Assembly: GCA_046262115.1 (NCBI GenBank)
Contig: JBHENJ010000037.1
Span: 22,993 to 86,992 of the forward strand
Length of the DNA stretch: 64,000 nt
DNA from: Candidatus Limnocylindria bacterium
Lineage (GTDB): Bacteria > Chloroflexota > Limnocylindria > QHBO01
Direction: 5' to 3'
Part shown: positions 47,945 to 63,869 of the stretch, in pieces
Numbering within the stretch: position 1 is the stretch's first letter
Layout of the letters: each line of letters begins with the position of its first letter
Program-made: the position numbers and the translations under genes
Notes under the pieces: generated by a model
Database searches by the model: none
What the model was told of the DNA's origin: nothing
Seen by the model: the letters and a program-made list of their open reading frames with translations, nothing else

Positions 47945-48274
47945 GTGAAGCTCGTCGCCGCCATCGTCCACAACGAAGACGCCGGCAGCCTGGTCGACGC
48001 GCTCCTCGAGCGCGAGCACCGCGCCACGCGCCTGCACAGCTCGGGCGGCTTCCTCAAGCAGGGCAACGCGACCATCCTGGTCGGCGTCGAGGACGACCGC
48101 GTCGACGACGTGCTCGGGATCATCTCGGCGAACTGCCACTCGCGGCGCCAGTTCGTGAACCCCATGCCGCCGATCCTCGAGCCCGGCGAGTTCTACATGC
48201 CGTACCCGGTCGAGGTGGAGGTCGGCGGCGCGACGGTCTTCGTCGTGCCCGTCGAGCGCTTCGAGCGCATCTAG
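47945..48274 (+). CDS. darA: cyclic-di-AMP receptor DarA/PstA (PII-like)
   Basis: Strong match to YaaQ/DarA incl. C-terminal YVPYPVEVEVGGATVFV; conserved tmk-darA synteny. Confidence 0.8.
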   Translation: MKLVAAIVHNEDAGSLVDALLEREHRATRLHSSGGFLKQGNATILVGVEDDRVDDVLGIISANCHSRRQFVNPMPPILEPGEFYMPYPVEVEVGGATVFVVPVERFERI

Positions 48275-48300: not shown

Positions 48301-48873
48301 ATGGCCGGCTGGATCGACGCCCTGGAGTCCAAGGCGCCGGACGTCGTGGCCGTGTGGCACGTCTGCGACGGCCCGTTCCGCGAGTTCCGTCGCGAGTTGC
48401 GGCGGCGTGCGAGCCGCGAGACGGCGGCGGGCGTACTCAAGCAGCAGGAGGCCGTCGCCGACGTGCTCCGCGACGTGCTCAAGTCGCTCCCCGACGCCGC
48501 CCTGCTGTTGCCCGGCAACGAGGGCGACTGGAACGTGGCGCAGACGTTCGCGCACACCACGGCGGCACGCCGCTTCCTCGCCCGCGGCGCCGCGCTCGCC
48601 GCGACCGGCGGCTGGCCTGCTGACGACCCGCCGACCCCGATCGCCGGCATCCCAGGCCGTGACGCCGACCGGGAGATGCTGCTCGCGCTGCTCGAAAAGT
48701 CCCGGCGCTCGATCGCGGAAAGCGCGGCGCTGATCGCCGGCCACGAAAGCGATCCATGTCCGATGGATCACCCGCTGGTCGGCCATTTGCGCTGCGGAGA
48801 GTGGCTGCTGTTCATCGGCGTCCACGACCTCATGCACCTGGAGCAGCTCGAGACGCTCGCCGCTCGTGTCTGA
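48301..48873 (+). CDS. DinB/YfiT-like (DinB_2) metal-dependent protein
   Basis: His-containing four-helix-bundle motifs (FAHTTAARRF..., HDLMHLEQ). Confidence 0.55.
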   Translation: MAGWIDALESKAPDVVAVWHVCDGPFREFRRELRRRASRETAAGVLKQQEAVADVLRDVLKSLPDAALLLPGNEGDWNVAQTFAHTTAARRFLARGAALAATGGWPADDPPTPIAGIPGRDADREMLLALLEKSRRSIAESAALIAGHESDPCPMDHPLVGHLRCGEWLLFIGVHDLMHLEQLETLAARV

Positions 48874-49957
48874 CGCGCGTGGCGCGCCGGATCGCGCGCC
48901 GCTGGTCCTCCTCGCCGAGCCCGCGGTGGCTGTGACGGGCCCCTACACCGCGCTGGCCGCCGAGGGACGCAGGCTCCTGGGCGACGAGCTGGCGCGGCGG
49001 TTGACGCGAGCTGGAGCTCGGGTCGTGCCAGTCGCCGCCGCGCCCGAGGAGGGCTTCCGGTGGGGGCGCTGGTTCGCCAACGCGGCGCGCCCGCTGCTCG
49101 CCGAGGGCGACGTCGACATGCTCGGATACGCGACCGCGGGGTCGCTCGCACTCGTCGACGACGAGTTCCTGCGCGCGTTGCTCTCACCGGACGACGTCGT
49201 CGTCGTCGCGAACAACCGCTTCAGCGCCGATGCCTTCGTGGTGCGCGGCGACGTGGCGCGCGCCGTATCGGTCCTCGAGGAGGTGGCGAGCGACAACGCC
49301 GCGGTCCGTTGTCTTGCCGACGCCGGTTTCGCCGCCACCGACCTGTCGGACCGACCATTCGCGAGCGCCGATGCGGACACGCCGCAGGACCTCGAGCTGC
49401 TTCGCCTGGGCGGAGCGACAACCGCGTCGCGGTCGATCGCGGAGCTGCCGCGCGTCGGTGATCTCGGGCGCGTTGTTCGCGATCGCAACGCCGAGATCGT
49501 GGTCGCGGGCCGAGTCTCCACGTCCACGGCGCGCTACGTCGAGAGTGAGACGGCGTGCCGGGTGCGGCTCTTCATCGAGGAGCGCGGCATGCGCGCCGGA
49601 CCGGGGGCGCCTCGATCGCTGCTGGCGGCGTGGCTGGATCGTCACGGCGCGACGGCGCTGATCGAGCAGCTCGGATCGCTCGGTGACGCCGTCGTGCTCG
49701 ACACGCGCGTGCTGATGGCGACCATCGGCCGCTCGTCGGATGCGGCGGCCTGGCCGCCGGCCGAGGAACGCTTCGCGTCCGACTTCCTCGACGCGAGCGT
49801 CATCGAGACACCCTGGCTGCGAGACCTGACCGAGGCGGCGAGCGCGAGCCAGATCCCCGTCCTCGTCGGCGCTCACCTGCTCGTCAACGACGGGTTGCGC
49901 ATCCTCGTCCAGCGCGCCTGGGAGGCCGCGGACCTGTCCGAGTCCGCTCCGCGCTAG
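48866..49957 (+). CDS. hypothetical protein
   Basis: 363-aa ORF with coding-like composition, no recognisable motif. Confidence 0.45.
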   Translation: MSDARGAPDRAPLVLLAEPAVAVTGPYTALAAEGRRLLGDELARRLTRAGARVVPVAAAPEEGFRWGRWFANAARPLLAEGDVDMLGYATAGSLALVDDEFLRALLSPDDVVVVANNRFSADAFVVRGDVARAVSVLEEVASDNAAVRCLADAGFAATDLSDRPFASADADTPQDLELLRLGGATTASRSIAELPRVGDLGRVVRDRNAEIVVAGRVSTSTARYVESETACRVRLFIEERGMRAGPGAPRSLLAAWLDRHGATALIEQLGSLGDAVVLDTRVLMATIGRSSDAAAWPPAEERFASDFLDASVIETPWLRDLTEAASASQIPVLVGAHLLVNDGLRILVQRAWEAADLSESAPR

Positions 49958-50069: not shown

Positions 50070-50429
50070 ATGGATCTGACCGGGCTGCTCTACGTCATCG
50101 GTTTCGCGGTGGCCACGACGATCTTCGTGGGCGCCACGATCGCGTTCGCGTGGCTCATCTCGCATCGGCGGCAGCGACCGCAGAAGGGGCTGCCGTACGA
50201 GTCGGGGATCGATACCATCGGCGACACCTGGTCGCGCTTCGGCCTCGCGTTCTACCTCTACGCGCTGCTGTTCGTGGCCTTCGACGTCGAGATCATCTTC
50301 GTGTACCTGTGGGCGACCGTGATCCGGGCGATCTCGATCGAGGGGATCGTGCTCATGGGGATCTTCCTCACGATCCTGATGTTCGGTGAGCTGTACGCAT
50401 GGAAGAAGGGTGACCTTCGATGGCACTAG
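50070..50429 (+). CDS. nuoA: NADH-quinone oxidoreductase subunit A
   Basis: 3-TM NuoA signature. Confidence 0.9.
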
Positions 50430-51082
50430 ATCAGACCGATACGACCCTCACCGGGTCGTCGACGAATGGCGGGAACGGCGGCGGGCCGCTGGTCATCCGT
50501 GACGAGGCCGGCGAGGATCCGGCGCTCCGCGAGTTCGGCATGGAGGACCACCCCCGGGGCGGCTTCCACGGCCTGCTCGAGGTCATCCCCACCAAGGCCG
50601 ATTACGTCCTCGACCTCATCCGCGCGAACTCGCTATGGCCGCTGCTGTCGGGGTTGAGCTGCTGCGCGATCGAGATGATGAGCACGGCGACGGCGGTCAA
50701 CGACATCGACCGATTCGGGATGTTCCCGTTCCGCGCCAGCCCGCGGCAGGCGGACGTGCTGATCGTCGCCGGGACCCTGACGACCAAGATGGCCGGGCCG
50801 CTGGTCCGGCTGTGGGAGCAGATGCCCGAGCCCAAGTGGTGCGTCGCGATGGGAACCTGCACGACGTCGGGCGGTCGCTTCAAGCGGAGCTACAGCGTCG
50901 TGCAGGGCGTGGATCGGCTGATGCCGGTGGACGTCTACGTGCCCGGCTGCCCGCCACGCCCTGAGGGGCTGATCTACGGGATGATGAAGCTCCAGGAGCT
51001 GATCAAGCAGCGCCGCGGCCAGTGGCGCGAGTACGTCGATCGCGGCCCGCAGCGCCAGTCCTGGGAGGGAGACGTCCGATAG
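50420..51082 (+). CDS. nuoB: NADH-quinone oxidoreductase subunit B (N2 cluster)
   Basis: [23 protein letters not shown] cluster-ligand motifs. Confidence 0.9.
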
Positions 51083-51726
51083 CCACCGCCGCTCCGCCGA
51101 GCTCGGGGAGGCTCATCCGGCTCCTCCGCGACCGCTTCGAGATCGACCCGGACCAGGTCTGGGCCGATGGAGGCATCGACGGCGGGCAGGTCGAGATCGA
51201 GATCGGCACTGACCGCATCCACGCCGTGCTGCAGGCGCTGCGCGACGAGGAGGCGTTCGACTTCTACTTCCTCGCCGACCTCGCCGCGGTCGACTACGGG
51301 CCGGGCAATTGGTTCGAGGTGGTCTACCACCTCCACTCGGACCGCCATCCGGCATGGCTGCGCATCCGCACCCGCGTCGACCGGGAGGAGCCGCACGTCC
51401 CGAGCGTCACCGACCTGTGGAAGGGCGCGATGTTCCACGAGCGCGAGGCCTACGACATGATGGGCATCGTCTTCGACGGCAACCGCGACCTGCGGCGGAT
51501 CTTCATGTCGCCGGACTACCGCAGCTTCCCGCAGCGACGCGACTTCCTACTGCCCGATGACGCCGCCGACTCGTCGGCGGCGGGGATCAACCCGCTCGAG
51601 CGTCCCGAAACGTGGGACCTGGGCGCCTTCGCCACCGCGGTCGATCCGGCGGGCACGTGGCCGGCCGCCGACGCGGCATCGGTCGAGGACTCGACCACGC
51701 TGGCCGACGAGAGCCGGCCACGCTGA
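51022..51726 (+). CDS. nuoC: NADH-quinone oxidoreductase subunit C (30 kDa)
   Basis: NuoC core ([26 protein letters not shown]); only in-frame start is GTG 51022 (61-nt overlap with nuoB); CTG at 51061 alternative. Confidence 0.8.
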
Positions 51727-51730
51727 CGCC

Positions 51731-53056
51731 ATGACCGAGTCTACGACGCGACCCGCGACGCCGCCCGAGGAGACCTCGGACGCTCGGCAGGACCAGGCCC
51801 GCGACGAGGACCTGCGGCTCCGCCGCGCGGCAGGCCTCGAGCCGGCGGCGGAGAGCGCGGCGGCGGTCAGGCGGCGGCCCGCGTTCGAGTCGGCGGGCTT
51901 CGAGCAGATCGGGCTTCCGGATCGGCCGCCGCAGACGGAACGCGAGCGCGACTTCTTCACCCTCGGAGAGGGCGAGATGCTGCTCAACATGGGCCCGCAG
52001 CACCCGTCTACGCACGGGGTGATGCGGCTCCTCGCCAAGATCCGCGGCGAGGTCGTGACCGACATGGACCCGGTGCTGGGCTACCTGCACCGCGGGATCG
52101 AGAAGATCTGCGAGAACGCGACCTATACCACCGTCCTGACCTACGTCGACCCGATGGACTACCTGTCGGCGATGCACAACGAGCACGCGCCGGCGATCGC
52201 GTTCGAGAAGCTCTACGGGGTCAAGTGCCCGCCGCGCGCCGAATACATCCGCGCGCTGGTGGTCGAGCTGAACCGCTGCTTCAGCCACGGCCTGATGATC
52301 GGCTTCCTGGGGCTCGACATGGGCGGGCTCACGCCGATTCTGTACAGCTTCATCAACCGCGACGAGATCGTCGACATGCTGTCCGCGATCTCCGGGCAGC
52401 GCATGCTCTTCAACTTCTTCCGCGTCGGCGGGGTGAACTTCGACACCAACGACGAGTTCCTCTCCCGCCTGGGCCGCTGGATGAGCCACGCGCTCAGCAC
52501 GGTGGAGTACAACGAGCGCCTACTCACACAGAACGAGATCTTCACCGCCCGCACGCGTGGGATGGGCGTGCTGACCGGCAGGGAGGCCATCGCGCTGGGC
52601 GTCAGCGGGCCGAACCTGCGCGCCAGCGGCGTGCCGTTCGACGTCCGCAAGGCGCACCCGTACTCGATCTACCCGGAGCTCGAGTTCGACGTCATCACCC
52701 ACGAGAACGGCGACGTCTACGCCCGCTACCTCCAGCGCATCGCCGAGATCAAGCAGAGCATCCACCTGATCGACCAGATCATGGACAAGATGCCGCACGG
52801 TCCCGTGCAGGCGCAGGTGCCGGGCATCATCCGGCCGCGGCCCGGCCGGGCATACGCGGCCATCGAGAGCCCGCGCGGGCTGTACAGCGTCTACGTCATC
52901 AGCGACGGCGGCCCCAACCCGTATCGGTTCCGCATGCGCGACCCGAGCTACATCAGCCTCCAGGCCATCCCGCACCTCATGCCCGGGCACCTGCTCGCCG
53001 ACACCATGGCGATCATGGCGAGCTTCGACCCGGTCATGGGTGGCGTCGACAAGTAG
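51731..53056 (+). CDS. nuoD: NADH-quinone oxidoreductase subunit D (49 kDa), with ~60-aa N-terminal extension
   Basis: GPQHPSTHG, no [NiFe] Cys motifs; ATG 4 nt after nuoC stop. Confidence 0.9.
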   Translation: MTESTTRPATPPEETSDARQDQARDEDLRLRRAAGLEPAAESAAAVRRRPAFESAGFEQIGLPDRPPQTERERDFFTLGEGEMLLNMGPQHPSTHGVMRLLAKIRGEVVTDMDPVLGYLHRGIEKICENATYTTVLTYVDPMDYLSAMHNEHAPAIAFEKLYGVKCPPRAEYIRALVVELNRCFSHGLMIGFLGLDMGGLTPILYSFINRDEIVDMLSAISGQRMLFNFFRVGGVNFDTNDEFLSRLGRWMSHALSTVEYNERLLTQNEIFTARTRGMGVLTGREAIALGVSGPNLRASGVPFDVRKAHPYSIYPELEFDVITHENGDVYARYLQRIAEIKQSIHLIDQIMDKMPHGPVQAQVPGIIRPRPGRAYAAIESPRGLYSVYVISDGGPNPYRFRMRDPSYISLQAIPHLMPGHLLADTMAIMASFDPVMGGVDK

Positions 53057-53076: not shown

Positions 53077-54096
53077 ATGGACTTCGAGCTCGTCCTGGGG
53101 ATCCTTCGCTTCCTCCTGGCGACCACGCTGCTGCTCCTGCTCACCGTGCCGAGCGCGTTCCTGATCATCTACCTCGAGCTGAAGGTGATCGCGCTCATGC
53201 AGCTGCGCATCGGTCCCAACCGGGTCGGCCCGTATGGGATCTTCCAGGCTGCGATCCACGGCTTCAAGGTGCTCGGCAAGGAGGACGTCAGTCCGGACCA
53301 GGCCGACAAGCCGATGTTCACCATCGCCCCGTGGATGGTGTTCATGGCCTCGGCGATGAGCATGCTCGTCATCCCGTTCGCGCCCGGGCTGATCGCCGCG
53401 GACTTCAACATCGGCGTCATCTACTTCTTCGCCGTCATCGGCCTCTCGGTGGTCGGGCTGCTGGTCGCCGGCTGGGCGAGCTACAACAAGTACTCGCTCC
53501 TCGGCGGGCTGCGCAGCGCGGCGCAGATGGTGAGTTACGAGATCCCGCTGACGCTCTCCGTGGTCGGCGTGGTGATCCTCGCGGGAACCCTGTCGTTCAG
53601 CGACATCATCGAGTGGCAGCGGCTGCACGGCTGGGCGGTGCTGTGGCAGCTGCTGGGCTTCCCGATCTTCTATATCGCATCGACGGCCGAGATCAATCGG
53701 GCGCCGTTCGACCTGGTGGAGGCCGATTCGGAGATCGTCGCCGGCTTCGCCACCGAGTACTCCGGCATGCGCTTCGGCTTCTTCTTCTTCGCCGAGTACG
53801 TGAGCCTGTTCATCATGAGCGCGATCGTGGTGGCGCTCTTCTTCGGCGGCTGGCTGGCGCCGTGGCCGTTCCCCGCCGAGCTCGACCCGGAATGGGGCAT
53901 CCTGCGCTCGATCTACGGGCTGCTGTGGTTCTTCGGCAAGACCTACTTCTTCGTCTTCGTCTCGATCTGGCTGCGCGCCACGCTGCCGCGAGTGCGGGTC
54001 GACCAGCTGATGGGGCTGGCGTGGAAGGTGCTCCTGCCGCTGGCGCTGGTGAACCTGTTCGTGACCGCGATCGTCGTCGCGGTCTTCGAGCTCTAA
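53077..54096 (+). CDS. nuoH: NADH-quinone oxidoreductase subunit H
   Basis: 8-TM NuoH/ND1 signature. Confidence 0.9.
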   Translation: MDFELVLGILRFLLATTLLLLLTVPSAFLIIYLELKVIALMQLRIGPNRVGPYGIFQAAIHGFKVLGKEDVSPDQADKPMFTIAPWMVFMASAMSMLVIPFAPGLIAADFNIGVIYFFAVIGLSVVGLLVAGWASYNKYSLLGGLRSAAQMVSYEIPLTLSVVGVVILAGTLSFSDIIEWQRLHGWAVLWQLLGFPIFYIASTAEINRAPFDLVEADSEIVAGFATEYSGMRFGFFFFAEYVSLFIMSAIVVALFFGGWLAPWPFPAELDPEWGILRSIYGLLWFFGKTYFFVFVSIWLRATLPRVRVDQLMGLAWKVLLPLALVNLFVTAIVVAVFEL

Positions 54097-54117: not shown

Positions 54118-54957
54118 ATGGCTGTGGTCGGCGTCGGGATCCTCAAGGGCATGGCGACGACGCTGCGCAACCTGTTCGCGGCCAAGGTCACGCGCCAGTA
54201 CCCCGAGGTCCGGCCGGAGATCCCCGACCGATGGCGTGGCCGCCTCGACCTGATCTACGACGCCTTCGGCGAGCACAAGTGCGAGGTCTGCTTCCAGTGC
54301 GCGCAGGTCTGCCCGGTCGAGGCGATCGACATGAGCGGCTTCGACCAGGAGGGGAACCGGATCCGCTACGGCGTCCCGGAGATCTACGACGAGCGCAAGG
54401 ACCCCAACGCCTACCGCCGGGCGGGCCTGCCGGCGCGGCCGATGCGCAACCCGGCCCGCTGGGACGAGGGAATCGACACGCCGTTCGTGACCGAGGTCGT
54501 CGCGCGCTATCACGCGCGTCCCGAGGCACTGGTGGCGATCTTCAACGCCGTGCAAGCGCGGTTCGGGTACCTCCCCGAGCGGGCGCTGCGCATCATCAGC
54601 GACCGCATGACGATCCACTGGGCGCAGGTCTTCGGCGCCGCCGGGCTCGGCGGGTTCCGCCTGCTCCCCGCCGAGGGCCACGTCATCACCGTGTGCGACT
54701 GCGCCGCGTGCCGCTTCGCGGGCGGCGATCGCCTGCTGGCGGCGCTGCGCGAGCAGCTGGGCGTGGCGCCGGGCGAGACCACCGCCGACGGCCGCTTCAC
54801 GCTCGAGGTCGACTCGGATGTCGCTGCCGGCACCATCGCGCCGGCGATCCGCGTCGACACCCTGGTCTACGGGCCCGTGACGCCGGACCAGGCGCTGCAC
54901 ATCCTGAACGAGCGCCGTCGGACCGCGGACGAGCGCACCGCAACGCCCGTCAGCTGA
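54118..54957 (+). CDS. NuoI-like (single 4Fe-4S motif) fused to NuoE-like thioredoxin-fold domain
   Basis: AAGGAG RBS; N-half matches NuoI but only one CxxCxxCxxxCP (CEVCFQCAQVCP); C-half matches NuoE but has only CDCAAC (second Cys pair absent). Confidence 0.7.
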   Translation: MAVVGVGILKGMATTLRNLFAAKVTRQYPEVRPEIPDRWRGRLDLIYDAFGEHKCEVCFQCAQVCPVEAIDMSGFDQEGNRIRYGVPEIYDERKDPNAYRRAGLPARPMRNPARWDEGIDTPFVTEVVARYHARPEALVAIFNAVQARFGYLPERALRIISDRMTIHWAQVFGAAGLGGFRLLPAEGHVITVCDCAACRFAGGDRLLAALREQLGVAPGETTADGRFTLEVDSDVAAGTIAPAIRVDTLVYGPVTPDQALHILNERRRTADERTATPVS

Positions 54958-54959
54958 CC

Positions 54960-56357
54960 GTGGCGACCAACCTCTCGCCCGGCATCACCAGCGTGCCGGG
55001 CGGCGAGCCGCGGCTGCTGACCGACATCGGTCGGGTGGACCCGGACACCATCGGCAGCTATCTCGAGCTCGGCGGATACGCCGGACTGCGGCGCGCGATC
55101 GAGCAACTATCGCCCGAGCAGGTCATCACGGAGGTGGAGGCCGCTGGCCTGCGTGGCCGCGGCGGAGCCGGCTATCCCGCGGCGGCCAAGTGGCGCGTCG
55201 CGCGCGGCGAGGAGGCGGCCCGCAAGATCGTCGTCGCCAACGTGATGGGCGCCGATCCCGCCGCGCTGGGCGACCGGGCGCTCGCCGAGGGCAACCCTCA
55301 CCTGATCCTCGAGGGGCTGCTGATCGCGGCGTTCGCTGTCGGCGCCGGCGAGGCGATCATCGCGGTGCGCCGCGACTGGACGCTCGCCATCGAGCGGCTG
55401 CGCCGCGCCATCGCTGAGGCCGATGAGGCCCATCTCGGCGGACCGCTGATTCTCGGCACCGACGTCAGCGTCGCGGTCAGCGTCTGGGAGGGATCGGGCG
55501 CCTACGTCGCCGGCGAGGAGACCGCACTGATGCACGCCCTCCAGGGCGACCGAGGCATGCCCATGATCCGGCCGCCCTACCCCGCCGAGCGCGGCCTGTG
55601 GGGCGTGCCGACCGTCATCCAGGGCGCCGAGACGCTGGCGCACGTGGCGTGGATCCTCCTGCACTCCGAGGAGGCGTTCCGCTCGGTGGGCAGCGAGGCG
55701 TCGCACGGCACGAAGCTCGTCACGCTCCAGGGCCGCGTCCGGAACCCCGGCCTGATGGAGATCGCGATGGGCACGCCGCTGCTCGCAGTCCTCGAGGCAG
55801 CGGGCGGCGGGAGCGGCGTCACCAAGGCGCTCTTCGTGGGCGGGCCCGGCGGCGGGGCGATCGCCGACGAGGGGCTCAACACGCCGTTCGACTACGAGCC
55901 ACTTGCCGCGGCGGGCGCCGTCGTCGGCTCGGGCTCGATCCTCGTGACCGACACCGACACCTGCATGGTCGACACGGCACGCTTCTTCCTGAACTTCTCG
56001 TCGCGTGAGGCCTGCGGCAAGGCGGTCCCGTGTCGCATCGGCACCAAGCGTCTCGTCGAGGCGCTGGACCGCGTGCTGGCTGCGCGCCCGCGGCCAGACG
56101 ACTTCACGCTCCTCCGAGCCCTCTCACGCAAGGTGGCCGATACGGCCCTCTGCCAGCTCGAGGCGCTCGCGCCTCAGCCGATGCTCACCACGCTCGCTCT
56201 CTTCCCGGAGGAGTACCGCGCGCACGCCGAGCGCGGCGAGTGCCTTGCCGGCGCATGCGACGTGAGCGGCGTGACGCCGCTCCTCCAGCCGCTTACCGAC
56301 CTCGACCCCACCCCGCAGCTCGCGACCGAGGCCGATACCGCGCCGCCCGCGAACTGA
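54960..56357 (+). CDS. NuoF-like (51 kDa) subunit, divergent
   Basis: GLRGRGGAGYP NADH-binding loop, FMN-region AGEETALMHAL...PTV; Fe-S motif reads ACGKAVPC (second Cys replaced by Ala); GTG start at 54960. Confidence 0.75.
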   Translation: MATNLSPGITSVPGGEPRLLTDIGRVDPDTIGSYLELGGYAGLRRAIEQLSPEQVITEVEAAGLRGRGGAGYPAAAKWRVARGEEAARKIVVANVMGADPAALGDRALAEGNPHLILEGLLIAAFAVGAGEAIIAVRRDWTLAIERLRRAIAEADEAHLGGPLILGTDVSVAVSVWEGSGAYVAGEETALMHALQGDRGMPMIRPPYPAERGLWGVPTVIQGAETLAHVAWILLHSEEAFRSVGSEASHGTKLVTLQGRVRNPGLMEIAMGTPLLAVLEAAGGGSGVTKALFVGGPGGGAIADEGLNTPFDYEPLAAAGAVVGSGSILVTDTDTCMVDTARFFLNFSSREACGKAVPCRIGTKRLVEALDRVLAARPRPDDFTLLRALSRKVADTALCQLEALAPQPMLTTLALFPEEYRAHAERGECLAGACDVSGVTPLLQPLTDLDPTPQLATEADTAPPAN

Positions 56358-56710
56358 CCGCAACGGCGCCACCGCGCCGACTCGTACTGAGCCGCGATAC
56401 GGCATGACTCCATCCAGCCGGCGGCATAACGGCACCCGCGTGTCGCTGCATCCGGTTGAGATATGGAGCGTATGCCAGTTAGTAACGTCGGCGACCGCCG
56501 GGGGCGCTCGGATATGCCAGGCATCCATGTTCTCGCGCCGCGATCGCGCGAGGCATGTCAGTAATAAGGCACGACTGCATATCTGCGCCCCGATCCCGGC
56601 TGGGAGCGTTGGATTAGGCGCCCGGTGCATACACCGCCGCCAGGCGGGCAAAACGGACCCTTGGCGCGCGATGAACGGCTCGCCGAAAGTGCCGGTACCA
56701 TAGCGGCGCG

Positions 56711-59167
56711 ATGACGTTCGGCTCGACCAACGGTCACGGCCCCGGCGGCCCCGGCGGCCCCGGCGGACCCGGCGGACCCGGCGGCGACGGAGTGGGCGCG
56801 CGCGAGGGCGACGGCGTCCACGCCACGCGATCGGTCGTCGACGAGTACACGCCCCTGTGGCCGATGGTCCCGGGCACGAAGCCACTTGCCGTCACCCTGA
56901 ACGGCGCGGAGGTGCTCGCCGAGGAAGGGCAGACGATCCTCCAGCTCTGCCGCGTGCAGAACGTGGAGATCCCTACGCTGTGCTACGAGCCCAAGCTCGC
57001 GCCGTACGGCGCGTGCCGCATCTGCGTCGTCGAGGTCGAGGGCGCCGCCGGAACGCCGATCTCCTGCGGCACCCAGGTCGAGGAGGGGATGGTCATCACC
57101 ACCCACTCCGACCGCGTGCTCGAGAACAGGCGCATGGTCCTGGAGCTCATCTTCAGCGACCACGACGCGTACTGCCTGCCGCCGTGCCAGTTCAAGTGCC
57201 CGACCCGCGTCGACATCCCGGGCTACCTGAAGCAGAACACGCTGGGCAACTGGGAAGAGGCAACGCGCATCCTCAAGCGCTCCCTGCCGTTCCCCGCGAT
57301 CCTGGGCCGTGTCTGCCCCGCGCCGTGCGAGACGCACTGCCGGCGCGAGGAGGTGGACACGCCGATCGCGATCCGCGACAGCCACCGGTATTGCGCGGAC
57401 CGCGTGCTCGAGGTCGACGCCCCGGCGCCGATCCCGTGGCCCAAGGAGCCGCCGAGCGGCAAGCGGGTGGCAGTCATCGGCGCCGGACCGGCGGGACTGG
57501 CAAACGCCTACTACCTCCAGCTGCGCGGCCACCAGTGCGACGTCTACGAGGCCGATCCGGAGCAGGGCGGCATGCTGCGCTACGGCATCCCGCAGTACCG
57601 GCTGCCCAAGGGCTGGATGGACCGCGAGCTGAACCACGTCTGGGAGCTGGGCGCGACGTTCCACCCGAACATGCGGCTGGGCCGCGACTTCCACCTCGCC
57701 GATCTGAAGGCCCAGGGCTACGACGCGATCTACGTGAGCATCGGCTGCTACAAGCCCAACGAGCTGGGCATCCCGGGCGAGGACGCCGACGGCGTCATCA
57801 ACGCGCTCGAGAACCTCTACAACTCGACGCGCGGCATCCCGATCCCGCGGCTGCGCGACTCGCGGATCGTGGTCATCGGCGGCGGGTTCACGGCGATCGA
57901 CTGCACGCGGACCAGCATCCGCCAGGGCGCCGCCGAGGTGAACCTCGTCTACCGCCGCGACCTGAAGGACATGCCGGCGCAGGACGAGGTGCACGAGGCG
58001 ATCGAGGAGGGGGCGCGGGTCATCTTCCAGGCCGCGCCGACGCGGATCATCACCGACGAGCGCAATCGCGTCACCGGCATGGAGTTCCAGCGCATGAAGC
58101 TGGGCGAACCCGATGAGAAGGGCCGCCGCCGCCCGACGCCCATGGCGGGCACCGAGTTCGTGATCGAATGCGACGTGGTACTGGGAGCCATCGGTCAGGG
58201 ACCCGAGCTGTCATGGATCGAGAGCGAGCCGGAAGAGATCCGCAACGGCCTCACGGTGAGCCGGCGCAACACCCTCGAGTCCGAGGAGGACACCTTCCGC
58301 ACCGGGGTCGACGGCATCTTCGTCTCGGGCGACGTGCGGACCGGGTCGGCGACCGTGGTCGAGGCCATCGGGGAGGCGCGGCGCGCCTCGTACGCCATGG
58401 ACTACTGGCTGCGCGGCCACGACCTGGACGATCCGCAGGTGCGCCGCATCGTCGCCGAGCCGCAGCCGCAGTTCCTGACCATCGTGCCCTTCACGGACGA
58501 CGTGAAGGAGCCGCGCGCGATCATGGGCAAGCTGGGCGCCGAGGACCGCAAGACGAACTTCGGCGAGTACGAGCACGGCTACACCCACGACCAGGCGATG
58601 GCCGAGGCGGGCCGATGTCTCCAGTGCACCTGCGAGGCCATCGGCCACTGCGACCTCCGCGAGGCGGCGATCGAATACGAGACGACGCTCAACATGGCGA
58701 TCGACGAGCGCTCGATCCAGGACAACCCGTACGTCGGGGTCAACCACGGCTACGGCCGGGACGAGACGCACTCCTTCATCCTGCGCGACTACTCGCGCTG
58801 CATCGACTGCGGCCGATGCGCGCAGGTCTGCAAGGACATCGTGGGCGCCGGCTGTTACGACTTCATCCGCAAGGGCTTCGACTCACTGGTCACGACGGCC
58901 GATGAGGTCTCGCTCAACGAGACCCCGTGCGTCTCATGCGGCCGGTGCGCGGAGACGTGTCCGGTCGGCGCGCTCATGCCGCGGCCGCGGATCCTGGAGA
59001 CGTATCAGCTCGACGTCGCGCGCTGCATCTTCTGCGGCATCTGCGCCGATGCCTGCCCGTACGACGCCCTGCGCTGCGGGCCGGAGTTCGAGTTCAGCGA
59101 GTACCAGCGCGACCTGCCGATGCTCGACATCCTGGAGATGTCCGACCGGGAGCGGCCAACGCGCTGA
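56711..59167 (+). CDS. mosaic redox protein: NuoG-type 2Fe-2S N-terminus + GltD-like NAD(P)H/FAD oxidoreductase + NuoG/NuoI-like 4Fe-4S ferredoxin C-terminus
   Basis: LCYEPKLAPYGACRICVVEV (2Fe-2S); GltD-like Cys clusters, VAVIGAGPAGL and GGGFTAIDC dinucleotide motifs; C-terminal CIDCGRCAQVC, CVSCGRCAETCP, CIFCGICADACP motifs. Confidence 0.75.
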   Translation: MTFGSTNGHGPGGPGGPGGPGGPGGDGVGAREGDGVHATRSVVDEYTPLWPMVPGTKPLAVTLNGAEVLAEEGQTILQLCRVQNVEIPTLCYEPKLAPYGACRICVVEVEGAAGTPISCGTQVEEGMVITTHSDRVLENRRMVLELIFSDHDAYCLPPCQFKCPTRVDIPGYLKQNTLGNWEEATRILKRSLPFPAILGRVCPAPCETHCRREEVDTPIAIRDSHRYCADRVLEVDAPAPIPWPKEPPSGKRVAVIGAGPAGLANAYYLQLRGHQCDVYEADPEQGGMLRYGIPQYRLPKGWMDRELNHVWELGATFHPNMRLGRDFHLADLKAQGYDAIYVSIGCYKPNELGIPGEDADGVINALENLYNSTRGIPIPRLRDSRIVVIGGGFTAIDCTRTSIRQGAAEVNLVYRRDLKDMPAQDEVHEAIEEGARVIFQAAPTRIITDERNRVTGMEFQRMKLGEPDEKGRRRPTPMAGTEFVIECDVVLGAIGQGPELSWIESEPEEIRNGLTVSRRNTLESEEDTFRTGVDGIFVSGDVRTGSATVVEAIGEARRASYAMDYWLRGHDLDDPQVRRIVAEPQPQFLTIVPFTDDVKEPRAIMGKLGAEDRKTNFGEYEHGYTHDQAMAEAGRCLQCTCEAIGHCDLREAAIEYETTLNMAIDERSIQDNPYVGVNHGYGRDETHSFILRDYSRCIDCGRCAQVCKDIVGAGCYDFIRKGFDSLVTTADEVSLNETPCVSCGRCAETCPVGALMPRPRILETYQLDVARCIFCGICADACPYDALRCGPEFEFSEYQRDLPMLDILEMSDRERPTR

Positions 59168-59211
59168 TCTCCGGACCGAACGGCCTTGGCGGATCGGCGG
59201 CTCTCGTCCGC

Positions 59212-59240
59212 GACACCGGATTCGCGGCGCGAATCGGGTG
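59212..59240 (+). terminator. GC-rich hairpin after the 818-aa gene (candidate terminator)
   Basis: ccggattcgcg-gc-gcgaatcggg near-perfect inverted repeat; no clear U-tract. Confidence 0.3.
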
Positions 59241-59264
59241 GTGAAGTGCACGTCCTGCGGCCGA

Positions 59265-59484
59265 GGCGTATTCGTCCGGTGAATGTATCGGTCAATCCTC
59301 GGGCCTCAATCGTCCTTTGGTTGGCCGTCGACGCTCACCGTAGTCGCCTGACGCATGGCGTGATCACGAATGGCCCGTCCGATCCGGCATCGAAGGACGT
59401 CGTTGTCCGATAGATCCGTCGGGCGAATACCGACCCCCTGCGGCGCGTCGACCGTTGCACCGCATTCGTCGGCCGAATCCGATG
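59265..59484 (+). repeat. ~220-bp noncoding repeat element, copy A
   Basis: ~75-80% identical to 61391..61609 in direct orientation with conserved blocks GGTGAATGTATCGG, GAATGGmCCGTCCGA, TTGTCCGATAsATCCGTCGGGCGAATAC, CCGAATCCG; 5' block and internal block are mutually complementary (long-range stem). Confidence 0.55.
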
Positions 59485-59530
59485 GGCGGCGGCGGCCGTG
59501 GATGTGCGACTTGCGACGGTAACGTGGCTC

Positions 59531-60505
59531 GTGAAAGCGATCGTTCGGTCGGAGTACGGGACGCCTGACATCCTCCGGCTCGAGGAGATCCCAACCCCCG
59601 AGCCCGGTGACGGTGAGGTGCTGGTCAGAATCCGGGCGTCATCGGTCAACCGAACGGATCTGGAGTCACTCGCGGGCAGACCGCTGGTGTATCGGGCGTT
59701 CATGGGGCTGCGCAGGCCTCGCAACGGACGGCTTGGGCTGGACGCCGCGGGCGAAGTCGAGGCGGTCGGGCCGGGCGTGGAGCGCTTCAAGCCGGGCGAC
59801 AAGGTGTTCGCGGATCTGCTCTACCACGGGATGTGCGCCTTCGCGGAGTACGCCTGCGCGCGGGAGAAGGCGTGGCGCCCGATCCCTGACGGCGTCGACT
59901 TCGAGACGGCGGCGACGCTGCCGGCGTCGGCGGTGCTCGCGCTCCAGGGACTCGGCGGCCGCGACGGCGTCCGCGCGGGCGAGCGGGTTCTCATCATCGG
60001 CGCCTCCGGGTCGGTCGGGATCTTCGCGGTGCAACTTGCGAAGGCAGCCGGGGCGCACGTGACCGGCGTGTCGAGCGCCGGGAAGTTCGATCTCGTCCGC
60101 TCCATCGGTGCCGACGACGTCATCGACTACGCCCGCGAGAACTACACGCGCGGCGACCGACGCTACGACCGCATCCTCGATGCCGTCGCGATGCACTCCG
60201 TTTTCTCGGTGCGCCGCGCCCTGACCGCTGGCGGCGTCTACGGCGCCCACGGCGGTCGGTCGAGCGGCGGCCTCCTCCAGGCGATGGCGCTCGGGCCTTT
60301 GCTCTCCGTGGGGCGCAAGCGGCGGATCGGGGTCGTGATGGGCAGACCGAACGACGCCGCGGACCTCGCGACCGTGGGCGAGATGGTGCGGGCGGGCACG
60401 CTGGTCCCGCTGATCGATCGCACCTTCACGCTCGCTGGGGTGCCCGAGGCGTTGCGCATCTATGCAGCGGGTGAGGCGCGCGGCAAGCTCGTGATCAGGA
60501 TCTGA
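59531..60505 (+). CDS. zinc-type alcohol dehydrogenase/quinone oxidoreductase (MDR family)
   Basis: MKAIVRSEYG start (GTG), GxGxxG (GASGSVGIFAVQLAK); listed start 59498 extends into repeat A. Confidence 0.8.
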   Translation: MKAIVRSEYGTPDILRLEEIPTPEPGDGEVLVRIRASSVNRTDLESLAGRPLVYRAFMGLRRPRNGRLGLDAAGEVEAVGPGVERFKPGDKVFADLLYHGMCAFAEYACAREKAWRPIPDGVDFETAATLPASAVLALQGLGGRDGVRAGERVLIIGASGSVGIFAVQLAKAAGAHVTGVSSAGKFDLVRSIGADDVIDYARENYTRGDRRYDRILDAVAMHSVFSVRRALTAGGVYGAHGGRSSGGLLQAMALGPLLSVGRKRRIGVVMGRPNDAADLATVGEMVRAGTLVPLIDRTFTLAGVPEALRIYAAGEARGKLVIRI

Positions 60506-60532
60506 CGGGCGCCAAAGTCCAAGGAGGCCGAT

Positions 60533-60946
60533 GTGGAGATCCGACCGAAGCCGCCGTCCAGGAAGGGCGGCTCCGACATGTTCATCGGCGACGTCTGGAT
60601 CGACCAGATCACCGGGGGCGAGGGCGGCTCGCGCATCCGGGTCAACGTCGTGCGCTTCGCACCCGGCGCGCGCAACGCCTGGCACGCGCACGCGCTCGGT
60701 CAGACGCTACACGTGACCGAGGGCCTCGGGCGGACCCAGGCGCGCGGCGGCGACGTCATCGAGATCCGGCCCGGCGACACGATCTATACCGCGCCGCGCG
60801 AGTGGCACTGGCACGGGGCTGGGCCCGACCACTTCATGACCCACGTCGCGATCTGGGAGGCGCCCGCGGAAGGGCCCGAGACCGAGTTCGCCGAGCAGGT
60901 TACGGACGCCGAGTACGACGCCGAGGGTGCGGATCGCGGCCGGTAA
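60533..60946 (+). CDS. cupin-domain protein
   Basis: AAGGAGG RBS; cupin motifs (NAWHAHALGQTLHVTEG, GDTIYTAPREWHWHGA). Confidence 0.7.
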   Translation: MEIRPKPPSRKGGSDMFIGDVWIDQITGGEGGSRIRVNVVRFAPGARNAWHAHALGQTLHVTEGLGRTQARGGDVIEIRPGDTIYTAPREWHWHGAGPDHFMTHVAIWEAPAEGPETEFAEQVTDAEYDAEGADRGR

Positions 60947-60966
60947 CCGACCGTGTACGGCCTCGG

Positions 60967-61332
60967 CTACATCGCTTCCGTCATCGGGCTCATGAGCTGG
61001 AAGTAGTTGCCGTCGGGATCGCTGAACGTGGCGATCAGGAACTCCGGCGGACCACCGGGGTTGTAGGGCTCGCGGACGACGGTCGCGCCGGCGGCGACGA
61101 ATCGGTCGAAATCGGCCTTGACGTCCTCGCTCTCGATGTTCCAGATCAGGCGGCCCGGCTGCGGATTCTTGCCGGTGACCTCATCGTGCGCGCCGATGCT
61201 GATGAAGCCGTTGCCGAGCTGCCACCCGGTGTACGCGCTGTCCTCGAAGCCCGGCTTGCCGAGGACCCTTGTGTAGAACTCCGTCAGGGCCTTTGGGTTC
61301 TCGGAGCCGATCAGGATGCTGTTGAAGTTCAC
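60967..61332 (-). CDS. VOC/glyoxalase-family protein
   Basis: AAAGGAGGAG RBS 5 nt before GTG (MNFNSILIG...); listed longer N-terminus rejected. Confidence 0.75.
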   Translation of the reverse strand: MNFNSILIGSENPKALTEFYTRVLGKPGFEDSAYTGWQLGNGFISIGAHDEVTGKNPQPGRLIWNIESEDVKADFDRFVAAGATVVREPYNPGGPPEFLIATFSDPDGNYFQLMSPMTEAM

Positions 61333-61390
61333 GCTCTCCTCCTTTGACGCTAGTCGGCGATGGATGACCGATCCGTATCGATCGGCGTCG

Positions 61391-61609
61391 GCGCGTTCGT
61401 GCGGTGAATGTATCGGCCATTCTTCGGTCGCGATCGGTACGTAGATCGCCGCCCGACGCGCACCGCAGTCGCTCGGTGCATGCCTTGACGCTGAATGGAC
61501 CGTCCGAGCCACACGGCGACGATCTACTTGTCCGATACATCCGTCGGGCGAATACGGATCGGCGACCGAGCTTTGACCGTTTCACCGTATTCACCAGCCG
61601 AATCCGGTG
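61391..61609 (+). repeat. ~220-bp noncoding repeat element, copy B
   Basis: Direct repeat of 59265..59484; here the 5' GAATGTATCGG and downstream CCGATACATCC are perfectly complementary. Confidence 0.55.
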
Positions 61610-61645
61610 CTAGCGAGGTCCGCCTGGCGACCTGGATCCGCGTCG

Positions 61646-62157
61646 TCACGACGTTGGCGGCACCTCGATGACGCGGCCATTCGCGACGCCGAAGTCCCAG
61701 ACATCGATGTCGGGCGGCTCAACGCCGAGCGCCGTGAGCGCAGTGCAGATCTGGCTCCGATGATCGCTGCCGTGATGCAGCGCCTGCGCGAGCCGGATGC
61801 CGATCGGCGCGTCTCTCTGATACCCGTCGTCCTCGTCGACCTCGCGCACGACGGCGTCGGGATCGAGGCCCTCTGCCAGGAACCGCGACCAAGCGGCGCC
61901 GTTGCGCTCCATGACGCCCCGGAGCTCGGCAAGGCCCATGCGCTCGTCGTCGATGGCGTGGGTCCGATCGCCAGTCAGATAGAACAGGTACCCGGCGTCG
62001 CCGCCGATGAAGTGGCGCTGCGTGTCGAGGATCGAGCCGTAGGTCCCGGGCACGACGCTGTCGAGCTGCTCCGGCTCAGCTCGACGCACGCATCGATCAA
62101 ACGCAGCGTCGCCCACACGTGGTGGGCGAACGCGTCTGCCATCAGGGATCTGCTCAT
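61646..62157 (-). pseudogene. DinB_2-family protein with apparent -1 frameshift
   Basis: N-terminus (MADAFAHHVWATLRLIDACVELS) in one frame, remainder (AEPEQLDSVVPG...HHGSDHRSQI...) in another; switch around 62075-62085. Confidence 0.5.
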
Positions 62158-62167
62158 CTCGTCCGCG

Positions 62168-62908
62168 ACTATAGCGACGAGCGAAGACGCGTCCGCGGCA
62201 GCCGATCAGCCCTTCTCGAGCACCTCCCGAGCTCCAGCAGCCGATCGCGCCAGTAGGCCTTCATCCGGTCGGCCGTCGACTCATCGGGAAGCCACTCGTG
62301 CCCGATCGTGACCACCGTCTTCGCGTCGCCCTTGGCGGTGAAGTAGACGACGACGATCGATGTCGGGTCGTCCCAGTCGAAGCGGACCGATGTTGCCGAT
62401 TTCGTCGGCCGCTGTCGCAGTGAGACGCCCGCGAGCCAGAGGCCCGCTGCGCCGCATCGGTGAAGGCGGCGAACGCACGGTCCGCCGACGCGTTGATCGT
62501 GCGGTTGACCGTGATCGTGAACCCGGTCGCCATCTGTCCCTTGGCGCGGAGGCCCCGTGCTCGCTCATAGCCGACGGTGACGCTTTGCGCCCACCAGCCG
62601 TCGACGCCGTGCTCCTCGCGCAGCCAGTGCGCGATCTCCGGGTGGCGACGTTCCGTGCCACCCCACTCGTCGAGGAGGCCGAACCAATCGGTCCAGCCCC
62701 TGCCGGTCGCGCTGCGGATGGCTTCATCGGTCGTCGGCATCTCGACGGCGGACTCGGCCGGCGCAACGGCCGGCGCCGATGTCTCTCCCGACGCTCCGGC
62801 GCCTGCATCGGCTCGGCGGATCAGCTGGGCCCGAGCCGCGGTGTACGACTCGCCGGTCTTCTCGGAGCGCGCGCGGACGCGGCGCTTGAAGGTCTTCTGC
62901 GTGGGCAT
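62168..62908 (-). pseudogene. DUF4287-like N-domain + SRPBCC/AHSA1-like C-domain protein with apparent frameshift
   Basis: Frame 1 reads MPTQKTFKRRV...TITVNRTINASADRAFAAFTDAAQ then low-complexity; SRPBCC-like continuation (SVRFDWDDPTSIVVVYFTAKGDAKTVVTIGHEWLPDEST...) is in another frame; 3' end uncertain. Confidence 0.4.
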
Positions 62909-63099
62909 GATTCGCTTCCTTCCCGCGACGGCGCTCCGGACTCACGCTCCCTTGCTCCGTCGAGAGAGGGCGAAACACGTCCCGGGGAAGCGAGTTCCCC
63001 TTTTCCCGCGAGGCCGATGGCGTGAGCACCGGATTCGGGGTTCGGCTGGGAGACGCCGTTGCGCGAGAGTCTAGCGCGCAGTCACAGTCGAATGGAAGA

Positions 63100-63627
63100 C
63101 CGATGCTCGACGTCACCATCCGCCCCGAACGCCCGGGCGAGGCCGATGCGGTCCGCGCCGTCAACGACGCTGCCTTCGGCGAGCCCGTCGAGGGCCGCAT
63201 CGTCGACGACATCCGTGGCACGGACCGATGGATCGACGGCGGGTCGCTCGTCGCGGAGGACGCCAGTGGCCGCATCGTGGGCCACCTCCTGCTCAGCGAA
63301 GGCGACCTCGAGACCGATTCCGGCGCGGCGCGCCGGATCTGGATGCTCGGCCCGGTGGCGGTGCTCCCCGCGGTGCAGCGGCGGGGCGTCGGCGCGGCGC
63401 TGATGCGCGCGGCGATCGAGCTCGCGACTTCACGCGGACAGCCGCTGATCTGTCTGCTCGGCCACGCCAGCTACTACCCACGGTTCGGCTTCGAGCCGGC
63501 GCGAGAAATCGGCATCCAACCGCCGCGACCGTGGCGCGACGCGAACTGGATGGCGCTGCGCCTCCCCGCCTGGACGCCGGATCTCCGCGGCGCCGCCCGC
63601 TACCCCTCCGCGTTCCCCGACGACTGA
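63100..63627 (+). CDS. GNAT family N-acetyltransferase
   Basis: Acetyl-CoA motif (VQRRGVGAALMRAAIE); start at MLDVTIRPE. Confidence 0.75.
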   Translation, partial: PMLDVTIRPERPGEADAVRAVNDAAFGEPVEGRIVDDIRGTDRWIDGGSLVAEDASGRIVGHLLLSEGDLETDSGAARRIWMLGPVAVLPAVQRRGVGAALMRAAIELATSRGQPLICLLGHASYYPRFGFEPAREIGIQPPRPWRDANWMALRLPAWTPDLRGAARYPSAFPDD

Positions 63628-63654
63628 CCCTGGGCCACCCGACGCTCGGCACAA

Positions 63655-63690
63655 AGGAAAACGCCCGCTATAGCGGACGTTTCTACGCAC
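63655..63690 (+). terminator. hairpin + T-tract downstream of GNAT gene (candidate intrinsic terminator)
   Basis: aacgcccgc-tata-gcggacgtt stem-loop followed by tct. Confidence 0.4.
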
Positions 63691-63869
63691 CAGGGGCTCG
63701 GAACACTTGTGGAATCTTTAGCAATGATCCCACCCCTTGCGGGGCCGCCCTGTTGTTCCCTGGTGCGCGAGGACCATAGCGGCCGCGCCGAGCGGTCGTC
63801 AAATGCGCACCCTGCGCCGGGTCATCCGGATCTCGTAGCGGCGGCTGCGCCTCGATCTGGTCGGCGACT

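Follow-up and report, generated by a model that had tools for sequence, protein, structure and literature searches.

A complex I operon of Limnocylindria with an apparently split nuoI gene, an inserted Nfn/Stn-type module and a probable NADPH input

Complex I is usually treated as an enzyme specific for reduced nicotinamide adenine dinucleotide (NADH) whose 14 core subunits are fixed and whose N-module was acquired once. What feeds electrons into a complex I operon whose NuoI-, NuoE- and NuoF-like proteins seem to lack ligands of their iron-sulfur clusters? This question is raised by a 64,000-nucleotide stretch of DNA from a Candidatus Limnocylindria bacterium of the Chloroflexota (assembly GCA_046262115.1, contig JBHENJ010000037.1, positions 22,993 to 86,992), called the window here, which has a G+C content of about 70%. 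A sequence-only reading of its nuo genes had proposed a coordinated decay of cofactor sites in a retained canonical NADH module. Our results pointed to another arrangement: nuoI appears to be divided between two genes with a stripped Nfn/Stn-type module between its halves, and the phosphorylated cofactor NADPH is probably the main input to quinone.

The operon lies on the + strand in the order nuoA-B-C-D-H-[I_N.E]-F-[G.GltD.I_C], and nuoJ-K-L-M-N come next in orthologous genomes. It would encode the peripheral arm and the membrane heel of a non-canonical respiratory complex I. Its last three genes encode a 279-residue protein (open reading frame (ORF) 54118-54957, +), a 465-residue F-like protein and an 818-residue protein (ORF 56711-59167, +). 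The parts of these proteins are as follows, with I_N and I_C denoting the two halves of NuoI.

54118-54381, + strand: I_N, N-terminal half of NuoI (residues 1-88 of the 279-residue protein; TIGR01971 positions 1-77)
54382-54489, + strand: conserved linker from I_N to the E-like domain (residues 89-124)
54490-54957, + strand: NuoE/BfuC-like thioredoxin-type domain of the 279-residue protein (Pfam PF01257)
54960-56357, + strand: NuoF/BfuB-like core, 465 residues, GTG start (Pfam Complex1_51K, SLBB, NADH_4Fe-4S)
56711-58975, + strand: NfnA/StnA-like part of the 818-residue protein (residues 60-782 against 9bov_A, 8oh5_C StnA and 9n5u_A NfnA)
58976-59167, + strand: I_C, C-terminal half of NuoI (residues 756-818 of the 818-residue protein; TIGR01971 positions 71-112)

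When one genome per species was scanned, 246 genomes contained relatives; essentially all were Limnocylindria because the search used an alignment of close homologs, and 80 loci were fetched for comparison. The ortholog sets comprised 80 sequences for the E-like protein, 65-67 for the F-like protein and 51 for the 818-residue protein. The arrangement was conserved in 80 Limnocylindria loci and was also found in fetched loci of distant lineages, which carry L-numbers (L081, L082/L089, L084, L087 and L088).

The 279-residue protein begins as NuoI. Its residues 11-88 matched TIGR01971 (NuoI) positions 1-77, and residues 18-77 matched E. coli NuoI 23-82. As the sequence-only reading had stated, it holds a single CxxCxxCxxxCP motif (C55-P66, 54280-54315), and its Fer4 match in Pfam was single and weak. 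The second motif had been thought missing; we found it on the 818-residue protein, whose residues 760-801 matched TIGR01971 positions 71-112. This half carries the motif C772-P783 (59024-59059) and the NuoI tail GPEFEFSEY (59078-59104), and the protein ends in CIFCGICADACPYDALRCGPEFEFSEY. The two motifs of NuoI (N6a and N6b) do not occur together in one polypeptide here, and I_N and I_C each provide four Cys, half of what two [4Fe-4S] clusters need. When the two halves were artificially concatenated, the product was colinear with E. coli NuoI (E = 5.5e-23), mitochondrial TYKY and T. thermophilus Nqo9. It aligned to E. coli NuoI 23-128 and TYKY 85-205, with both motifs and their flanks covered, and scored 107.9 bits versus a TIGR01971 cutoff of 113.05; the whole profile was matched only across the two polypeptides. 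The break lies at the hairpin between the two ferredoxin motifs.

The four Cys of I_N were present in 80/80 orthologs and those of I_C in 51/51. All eight are thus invariant, and both halves are almost unchanged across about 55 genomes (conservation of I_C 0.96-1.0). Residues 79-124 of the 279-residue protein were conserved at about 0.86, above the E-like domain itself. No further nuoI was found between nuoH and nuoJ in loci where nuoJ follows directly. Judged from these alignments, the nuoI gene is split in two and the motif is not lost. A NuoI that had lost a motif was rejected because the second half was found on the 818-residue protein. Although they lie on separate polypeptides, I_N and I_C would come together in the 2x[4Fe-4S] fold (N6a/N6b), and the reassembled NuoI would tether the inserted module to the Q-module.

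Where does the inserted module come from? For all three proteins the best PDB matches were NfnABC (9n5u, 9bov), StnABC (8oh5) and HydABC, with complex I subunits behind. The E-like domain, best matched in the PDB by NfnC (9n5u_C) and HydC, scored 85 bits against NfnC versus 53 against E. coli NuoE and 44 against Nqo2. The F-like protein aligned to residues 107-525 of the 584-residue chain 9bov_B and scored 408 bits against it, versus 270-273 against Aquifex NuoF and Thermus Nqo1. Neither reached the equivalog cutoff of its complex I counterpart (NuoE, 82.6 versus 141 bits; NuoF, TIGR01959, 338.3 versus 558.65 bits). The gene order E-F-G is that of BfuC-B-A. A retained canonical NADH module does not fit these scores, since the E-, F- and G-like proteins all scored higher against the Bfu proteins NfnC/B/A, StnC/B/A and HydC/B. 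A decayed canonical NuoEFG was rejected because the Bfu/Nfn/Stn chains are the best matches and because the GltD insertion point is shared with NfnA.

Residues 60-782 of the 818-residue protein aligned to 9bov_A 5-699 (E = 5e-172) with every cluster Cys matched. The protein has the NfnA-type GltD insertion and the Cys for clusters A1-A4, A6 and A7. It contains a [2Fe-2S] Fer2_4 domain (56879-57115), a GltD-type domain with 2x[4Fe-4S] and the site for flavin adenine dinucleotide (FAD) and NADPH (57176-58420; VYRRD at 57947-57961), and NuoG/HydA-type [4Fe-4S] sites (58601-58975). I_C begins at the position of the NfnA A5 motif, and the A5 cluster and the C-terminal Fdh-like domain are absent. 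All 34 Cys were invariant in 51/51 orthologs, and the GxGxxG, GGMLRYGIPQYRLPK and VYRRD motifs of the GltD domain were conserved. Conservation was 0.97 in the Fer4_20 region, 0.96-0.98 in the A2/A3/A4 regions and 0.75 in the A1 domain facing the F-like protein. The first ~56 residues of the ORF (56711-56878) were poorly conserved (0.28). A 9-bp tandem repeat of 5.4 copies (56737-56785) encodes (GPG)n in this N-terminus. The true start may be Met52 (56864), because NfnA homology begins at residue ~59.

When the insert is removed, the genes follow the 11-subunit complex I order A-B-C-D-H-I-J-K-L-M-N. This order was seen directly in L088 (A-B-C-D-H-IE'-F-G-J-K-L-M-N), L084 (H-IE-[F+GltD]-[G'+I_C]-J-K-L-M-N) and L087 (D-H-IE-F-G-J). 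By homology and gene order, it is a three-gene Nfn/Stn-type Bfu operon that sits inside nuoI of an 11-subunit-type operon.

Are the cofactor sites of this module still complete? The E-like domain matched Pfam 2Fe-2S_thioredx (PF01257) over residues 125-265 (E = 2.7e-26; 92.6 bits versus a cutoff of 24.8). At its C1 (N1a-equivalent) site, CDCAAC is kept (residues 193-198, C193-x-C195-xx-C198; 54694-54711) and the second Cys pair is absent, which agrees with what had been read before; no distal Cys was found in the 80 orthologs. The replacement of ECLGAC by DVAAGT had been recognized correctly, with the register off by one residue. In our alignment S-D-V-A-A-G (residues 233-238, 54814-54831) faces x-C-L-G-(A/C)-C of the NfnC, HydC and NuoE chains, which puts Asp234 and Gly238 at the distal ligand positions, and the four-Cys pattern Cx4C...Cx3C is not present. 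C193, C195, C198, H167, H188 and G238 were each found in 80/80 orthologs, and position 234 was Asp or Glu in 73/80. Cys195 is a gained invariant Cys and not a loss. By analogy with the zinc (Zn) sites of NfnB, the three invariant Cys together with Asp/Glu234 or His188 probably form a structural metal site.

The F-like protein starts with GTG at 54960, 2 nt past the upstream stop; the listed start at 54231 gives an out-of-frame overlap. Its Gly-rich loop GLRGRGGAGYP (55146-55178) is kept as reported, and its N3 motif indeed reads ACGKAVPC (56010-56033), which aligns to (E)SCGKC(T/V)(Y/P)C with Ala in place of the second Cys. The fourth B1/N3 Cys is kept in LCQLE (residue 398). The site read C-G-K-A-(V/I)-P-C, with Ala in the second position, in 65/65 orthologs, and the four-Cys N3/B1 site of NuoF is not present. 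In 7Fe ferredoxins and SdhB/FrdB, a [3Fe-4S] site is classically marked by replacement of the second Cys of CxxCxxC. By this analogy, the CxxAxxC...C pattern of B1 would match the pattern typical of three-Cys ([3Fe-4S]-type) sites. C1 lacks two of its four ligands and B1 one of its four.

The residues around flavin mononucleotide (FMN) had been described as kept, which was true in part. GEETAL, the Gly-rich loops, Lys-Trp and both adenine-stacking aromatics (the F159 and F294 equivalents) are kept; the counterpart of CNADEGD is ANVMGAD (55236-55277) and that of NNVET is QGAET (55614-55634). Among the orthologs, the NLMG motif was found in 62-64 of 65, the NN position reads QN, and the flavin-side Tyr position is variable (Y/L/M). 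NADH-site residues were defined from PMC11677225 and PMC11829005. Residue 222 (55623-55625) is Gly in the source genome versus Asn, the second Asn of NNVET, in 66/67 orthologs. The F-like protein has neither the N-terminal thioredoxin-like domain of BfuB (B5) nor its C-terminal 2x[4Fe-4S] domain (B3/B4), and its C-terminal tail contains no Cys and shows no conservation. What may be a B2-type Cys/His set is retained (TCMVD, H...C....C). The full marks of a Bfu bifurcating core, namely the extra B2-B5 sites and an intact B1-FMN-C1 flavobicluster, were not found.

Set against the published Bfu mechanism, the altered or missing parts in Limnocylindria are exactly the bifurcation and ferredoxin branch (C1, B1, B3/B4 and B5). 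Whether orthologs share the substitutions had been named as a check, and they do so in 65-80 genomes. The sequence-only reading was right that the pattern is coordinated, and it is lineage-wide; "decay" is too simple a word for it, because the altered residues are strictly conserved. Such strict conservation suggested a stable remodelled state and not ongoing erosion, and the module looks like one from which the bifurcation and ferredoxin branch has been removed. On this conservation, the ligand substitutions are fixed lineage traits under purifying selection.

The lineages differ in their E-like Cys, in the nicotinamide region of the F-like protein and in B1, as follows.

L084, L081: E-like domain with four Cys; nicotinamide region canonical (CNAEEGE / CNGDEGD, NNVET); B1 CxxCxxC
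L082/L089: E-like domain with an extra Cys (CxCxxC); ANAYGAD; third Cys of B1 lost, new Cys near the fourth (LCGLC)
L087: E-like domain with CxCxxC and one distal Cys; ANGFEAD; B1 CGKTIPC
L088: E-like thioredoxin domain lost; ANGYGAD; B1 CGKTIPC
Limnocylindria: E-like domain with CxCxxC only; ANLMGAD, QNAET; B1 CGKAVPC

The Gly-rich loop, Lys-Trp, GEETAL (GEETVL in L087 and L088), both adenine-stacking aromatics and loop 3, which bind NADH in NfnB and NuoF, are retained in all lineages. In L084 (2076-6023), GltD is fused to the C-terminus of a 1048-residue F-like protein that keeps the N-terminal thioredoxin-like domain; a 265-residue G'-NuoI_C protein comes next, and all flavobicluster residues are canonical. 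This variant is rare, with two protein clusters found in a search with the L084 G'-I_C protein. In L082 (2811-4217) and L089 (9115-10521), the third Cys of B1 is Gly (CGRCIPG) and a new Cys lies three residues past the fourth ligand, which looks like a compensating ligand swap. In L088 (10001-10726), the I_N fusion has lost the thioredoxin-like part of the E-like domain with all its Cys and retains just the helical part; the remaining operon is complete from A to N. In L085 (97-7726), genes for a soluble Stn/Nfn-like C-B-A set adjoin those for pyruvate:ferredoxin oxidoreductase. The C subunit of this set begins with a ferredoxin-like extension that is weakly similar to the I_N region, and this operon could resemble the donor operon.

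Which donor would these parts serve? The complex most likely functions as a proton-pumping NADPH:quinone oxidoreductase, possibly accepting NAD(P)H. NADPH would reduce the FAD in the GltD domain, and the electrons would pass through the two GltD-domain [4Fe-4S] clusters to NuoG-type A3/A4. From there they would travel through N6a/N6b of the split NuoI to N2 (NuoB) and quinone, coupled to proton pumping. The F-like protein would be a second, non-bifurcating NAD(H) site that feeds the chain via B1-A1-A2, or mainly a scaffold. The Bfu bifurcation parts would have been removed or remodelled in Limnocylindria, B3/B4 and B5 being gone and C1 and B1 altered. The highest constraint was found on the GltD-to-NuoI route (0.96-0.98), versus 0.75 for the A1 domain and 0.67 for the F-like protein overall. 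The Q-module of respiratory complex I is intact, with the NuoB N2 ligands, the quinone-site His/Tyr of NuoD, and NuoA, C and H. The sequence-only reading had suggested that electrons may now enter through the GltD-like protein, which fits the end-to-end alignment of this protein with NfnA/StnA, its 34 invariant Cys and its cluster-binding regions of 96-98% conservation. We therefore favour, with some reserve, a split-NuoI complex I with a stripped Nfn/Stn-type module and NADPH as the most likely main input to quinone. The broader history is put forward only tentatively: the complex I of Limnocylindria may have gained its dehydrogenase module independently of NuoEFG, via an Nfn-type operon inserted in an 11-subunit nuoI, with NuoI made from two polypeptides and the enzyme working as an NADPH-driven or dual NADPH/NADH proton pump.

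Several observations weigh against this reading. AlphaFold2, run on the joined NuoI halves with no alignment, produced a model too poor to use, with a predicted local distance difference test (pLDDT) score of 42. The nuoJKLMN genes were absent from the 64-kb window in tblastn searches with L084 and L087 proteins, so that we infer the complete complex in the source genome from relatives. The others concern NADH. The residues of the NAD(H) adenine/ribose site are conserved in 65-67 F-like orthologs and in all distant lineages; three B1 Cys of the F-like protein are conserved, as are all Cys of A1 and A2; and the 4-helix/B1 region reaches a conservation of 0.80. The apparently compensating Cys in L082/L089 suggests that B1 matters in the family. 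NADH input through FMN may still be operating, even as the main route.

The strongest alternative is one that we consider unlikely as a whole. In it NADH stays the main substrate: the F-like protein would bind FMN and NADH, and electrons would run from FMN through B1, A1, A2, A3 and A4 to NuoI, the path of ordinary complex I. B1 would be a functional three-Cys cluster, either [3Fe-4S] or [4Fe-4S] with a non-Cys ligand; the loss of C1 would be tolerated because it is off the main path; and the GltD domain would be an auxiliary NADPH entry or would let the complex act as a transhydrogenase. The conserved Gly-rich loop, Lys-Trp, GEETAL, adenine-stacking aromatics and loop 3 (65-67 orthologs and the distant lineages), the invariant A1 and A2 Cys, the [3Fe-4S]-type signature of the second-Cys replacement and the compensatory Cys of L082/L089 are all as this alternative predicts. 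However, the Asp and Glu of CNADE(G/S)(D/E) are replaced by Leu/Val, Met and Gly in every remodelled lineage, and these residues belong to the nicotinamide-contacting Glu95-Ser96-Glu97 region. Moreover, NN reads QN (QG in the window), the flavin-side Tyr position varies (Y/L/M), the E-like thioredoxin domain is wholly lost in L088, and constraint on the F-like protein (0.67) and the A1 domain (0.75) is below that on the GltD-to-NuoI route (0.96-0.98).

Less probable still is a reading in which the E-like and F-like proteins bind no cofactor and, as pseudoenzymes, serve only as a scaffold that keeps the G/GltD subunit and I_N attached to the complex; this is the most extreme form of the earlier proposal that the NADH module is structurally retained. 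Two of the four C1 ligands and one of the four B1 ligands are missing in all orthologs, catalytic motifs carry substitutions, conservation is below that of the neighbouring subunits, and the progressive loss ends with deletion of the E-like thioredoxin domain in L088, all of which agrees with a scaffold. On the other side, C193, C195, C198, the three B1 Cys and two His are 100% invariant, and Cys195 is a gain; the NAD(H)-site residues are invariant as well, and the 4-helix/B1 region is conserved at 0.80. With the retained Cys/His and NAD(H) residues invariant, the pattern is not one that a purely structural role predicts.

Sequencing or assembly errors, or pseudogenes in the source metagenome-assembled genome (MAG), which the high-GC metagenome-derived sequence and the fragmented matches in some related long-read MAG loci (L027, L061, L064) might suggest, were rejected as effectively refuted, because the same residues are conserved in 65-80 independent genomes, no frame is broken, and all three genes show purifying selection. 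Moreover, an independent NCBI record from a Candidatus Limnocylindria MAG matches the 279-residue protein at 100% identity, and hundreds of equally long homologs are 75-93% identical to it. The intervals once proposed for checking against reads (54700-54760 and 55985-56010) cover the sites only in part.

How does the favoured NADPH-fed complex compare with described enzymes? NfnABC and StnABC (9bov, 9n5u, 8oh5) share with it the three subunit types, the C-B-A order, the GltD insertion point and the Cys of A1-A4/A6/A7. They are soluble and bifurcate NADPH electrons to NAD+ and ferredoxin via B1-FMN-C1 plus B3/B4 (PMC11829005). In Csac NfnABC, the path leads from FAD through A7-A6-A3-A2-A1 to the flavobicluster B1-FMN-C1, and from C1 through B3/B4 to ferredoxin, with A4/A5 as a side branch; Zn occupies former cluster sites at B2 (3Cys+His) and B5 (3Cys+Glu, thioredoxin-like domain) (PMC11829005). 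In contrast, the B subunit of the window is without the N- and C-terminal cluster domains, C1 and B1 ligands are lost, A5 and the Fdh-like domain are replaced by the C-terminal half of NuoI, and the module is embedded in a nuo operon.

Schut et al. 2022 defined true bifurcating BfuB by extra B2-B5 sites and predicted two complexes, Nuo-Bfu (complex I plus a Bfu module) and Mbh-Bfu (PMC9304861). In their account, Nuo-Bfu is a 14-subunit A-N cluster that occurs in Deferribacteres, Proteobacteria, Planctomycetes and Nitrospirae; its predicted activity, with a full BfuBC core, is confurcation of NADH and reduced ferredoxin (PMC9304861). As proposed for the locus described here, it would be a complex I-like quinone-reducing proton pump with a Bfu-type input instead of canonical NuoEFG (PMC9304861). 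However, the F-like protein of the window lacks the B3-B5 sites among those used to define true bifurcating BfuB, and the account of Nuo-Bfu mentions no split NuoI, GltD/NADPH domain or Chloroflexota (PMC9304861).

Canonical complex I (T. thermophilus Nqo1-14, E. coli) resembles the locus in NuoA, B, C, D and H, with J-N in the relatives, in the N2 and quinone-site residues, in the cluster-chain logic of NuoI and in having homologous E, F and G. It differs in that E-F-G lie between D and H, NuoI is a single polypeptide, a GltD domain is absent, and all four ligands of N1a and of N3 are present, unlike in the window; the large C-terminal molybdopterin-like domain of canonical NuoG is absent from the window protein. 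The 11-subunit complex I/NDH-1 operons, which have no N-module, show the same backbone order once the insert is removed. In those enzymes nuoI is intact and the electrons come from ferredoxin or from unknown donors, whereas in the window a dehydrogenase module is built into nuoI. Mbx-like operons likewise join a complex I-related membrane module to a GltD-type NAD(P)H flavoprotein. There, a GltD-related flavoprotein is described as substituting for NuoI in an Mrp/Mbx-type non-quinone complex (Degli Esposti 2015, PMC4758237), whereas the window keeps NuoI, in split form, and a NuoD with a quinone-type site. A literature search of incomplete coverage turned up no account of nuo genes from Limnocylindria, of a NuoI in two parts or of GltD fused to NuoI. 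Among described systems Nuo-Bfu comes closest as an idea, and the locus would work like a complex I with an alternative N-module.

The membrane and Q-module genes upstream of the split nuoI, and the spacer within the module, are listed below.

50070-50429, + strand: nuoA, 119 residues (Pfam Oxidored_q4, E = 1.7e-30), syntenic in at least 56 orthologous loci
50420-51082, + strand: nuoB, 220 residues (Pfam Oxidored_q6), N2 cluster Cys present
51022-51726, + strand: nuoC, start codon uncertain (Pfam Complex1_30kDa), conservation 0.57
51557-53056, + strand: nuoD ORF (Pfam Complex1_49kDa), best PDB match T. thermophilus Nqo4, E = 9.5e-92
53077-54096, + strand: nuoH, 339 residues (Pfam NADHdh, E = 1e-114)
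56358-56710, no strand: spacer of 353 bp between the F-like and G-like genes (about 10-100 bp in orthologs)

NuoC was the least conserved of the subunits (0.57). NuoD has the quinone-site motifs HPSTHGV and GYLHRGIEK and no NiFe Cys. The listed nuoC and nuoD ORFs overlap by ~170 nt, and the nuoD ORF carries an Arg/Pro-rich N-terminal extension of ~117 residues without homology (51557-51910). The true start of nuoD is probably near 51908, because Nqo4 homology begins only at ~51968. The F-G spacer (66% GC) is particular to the source genome. It showed no similarity to other loci, no Rfam match, no repeat and no promoter- or terminator-like site, and as far as can be told it is not a functional part of the module.

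In most orthologous Limnocylindria loci nuoJ-N lie downstream of the G-like gene, after a gap of ~100 bp to ~4.7 kb. This distance is variable among relatives and therefore looks like an insertion hot spot. In the window, positions 59168-64000 hold a zinc alcohol dehydrogenase-like gene, followed by cupin, glyoxalase, DinB-like ORF, DUF4287 and GNAT genes. A 363-residue ORF directly upstream of nuoA (48866-49957) had no Pfam match. It is syntenic (46-63% identical) in almost every Limnocylindria locus that extends to this point, and its product may serve the complex as an accessory or assembly factor. About 1.8 kb upstream of the nuo operon lies a 109-residue cyclic-di-AMP receptor (47945-48274) with a full-length PF06153 match.

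In conclusion, the locus would represent a second, independent attachment of a dehydrogenase module to the 11-subunit core. It would have come about by insertion into a core Fe-S subunit, which then needs to be reconstituted from two chains, and the likely entry point is NADPH and not NADH. If this is true, the relatives L084/L081 with an intact flavobicluster would be membrane-bound, quinone-linked Bfu enzymes of an undescribed type. The lineage series from an intact bifurcation site to full dismantling could show which Bfu/NuoEF cofactors are dispensable once the ferredoxin branch is lost, and it bears on the debated role of cluster N1a/C1. Automatic annotation hides the split-NuoI architecture behind the labels "NADH-quinone oxidoreductase subunit E", "NAD(P)H-dependent oxidoreductase subunit E" or "formate dehydrogenase subunit gamma" that the source records give to these proteins. 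Limnocylindria are an abundant bacterial class of soil and freshwater and are widespread (246 species-level genomes matched), and the enzyme may therefore matter for the balance between NADPH and respiration.

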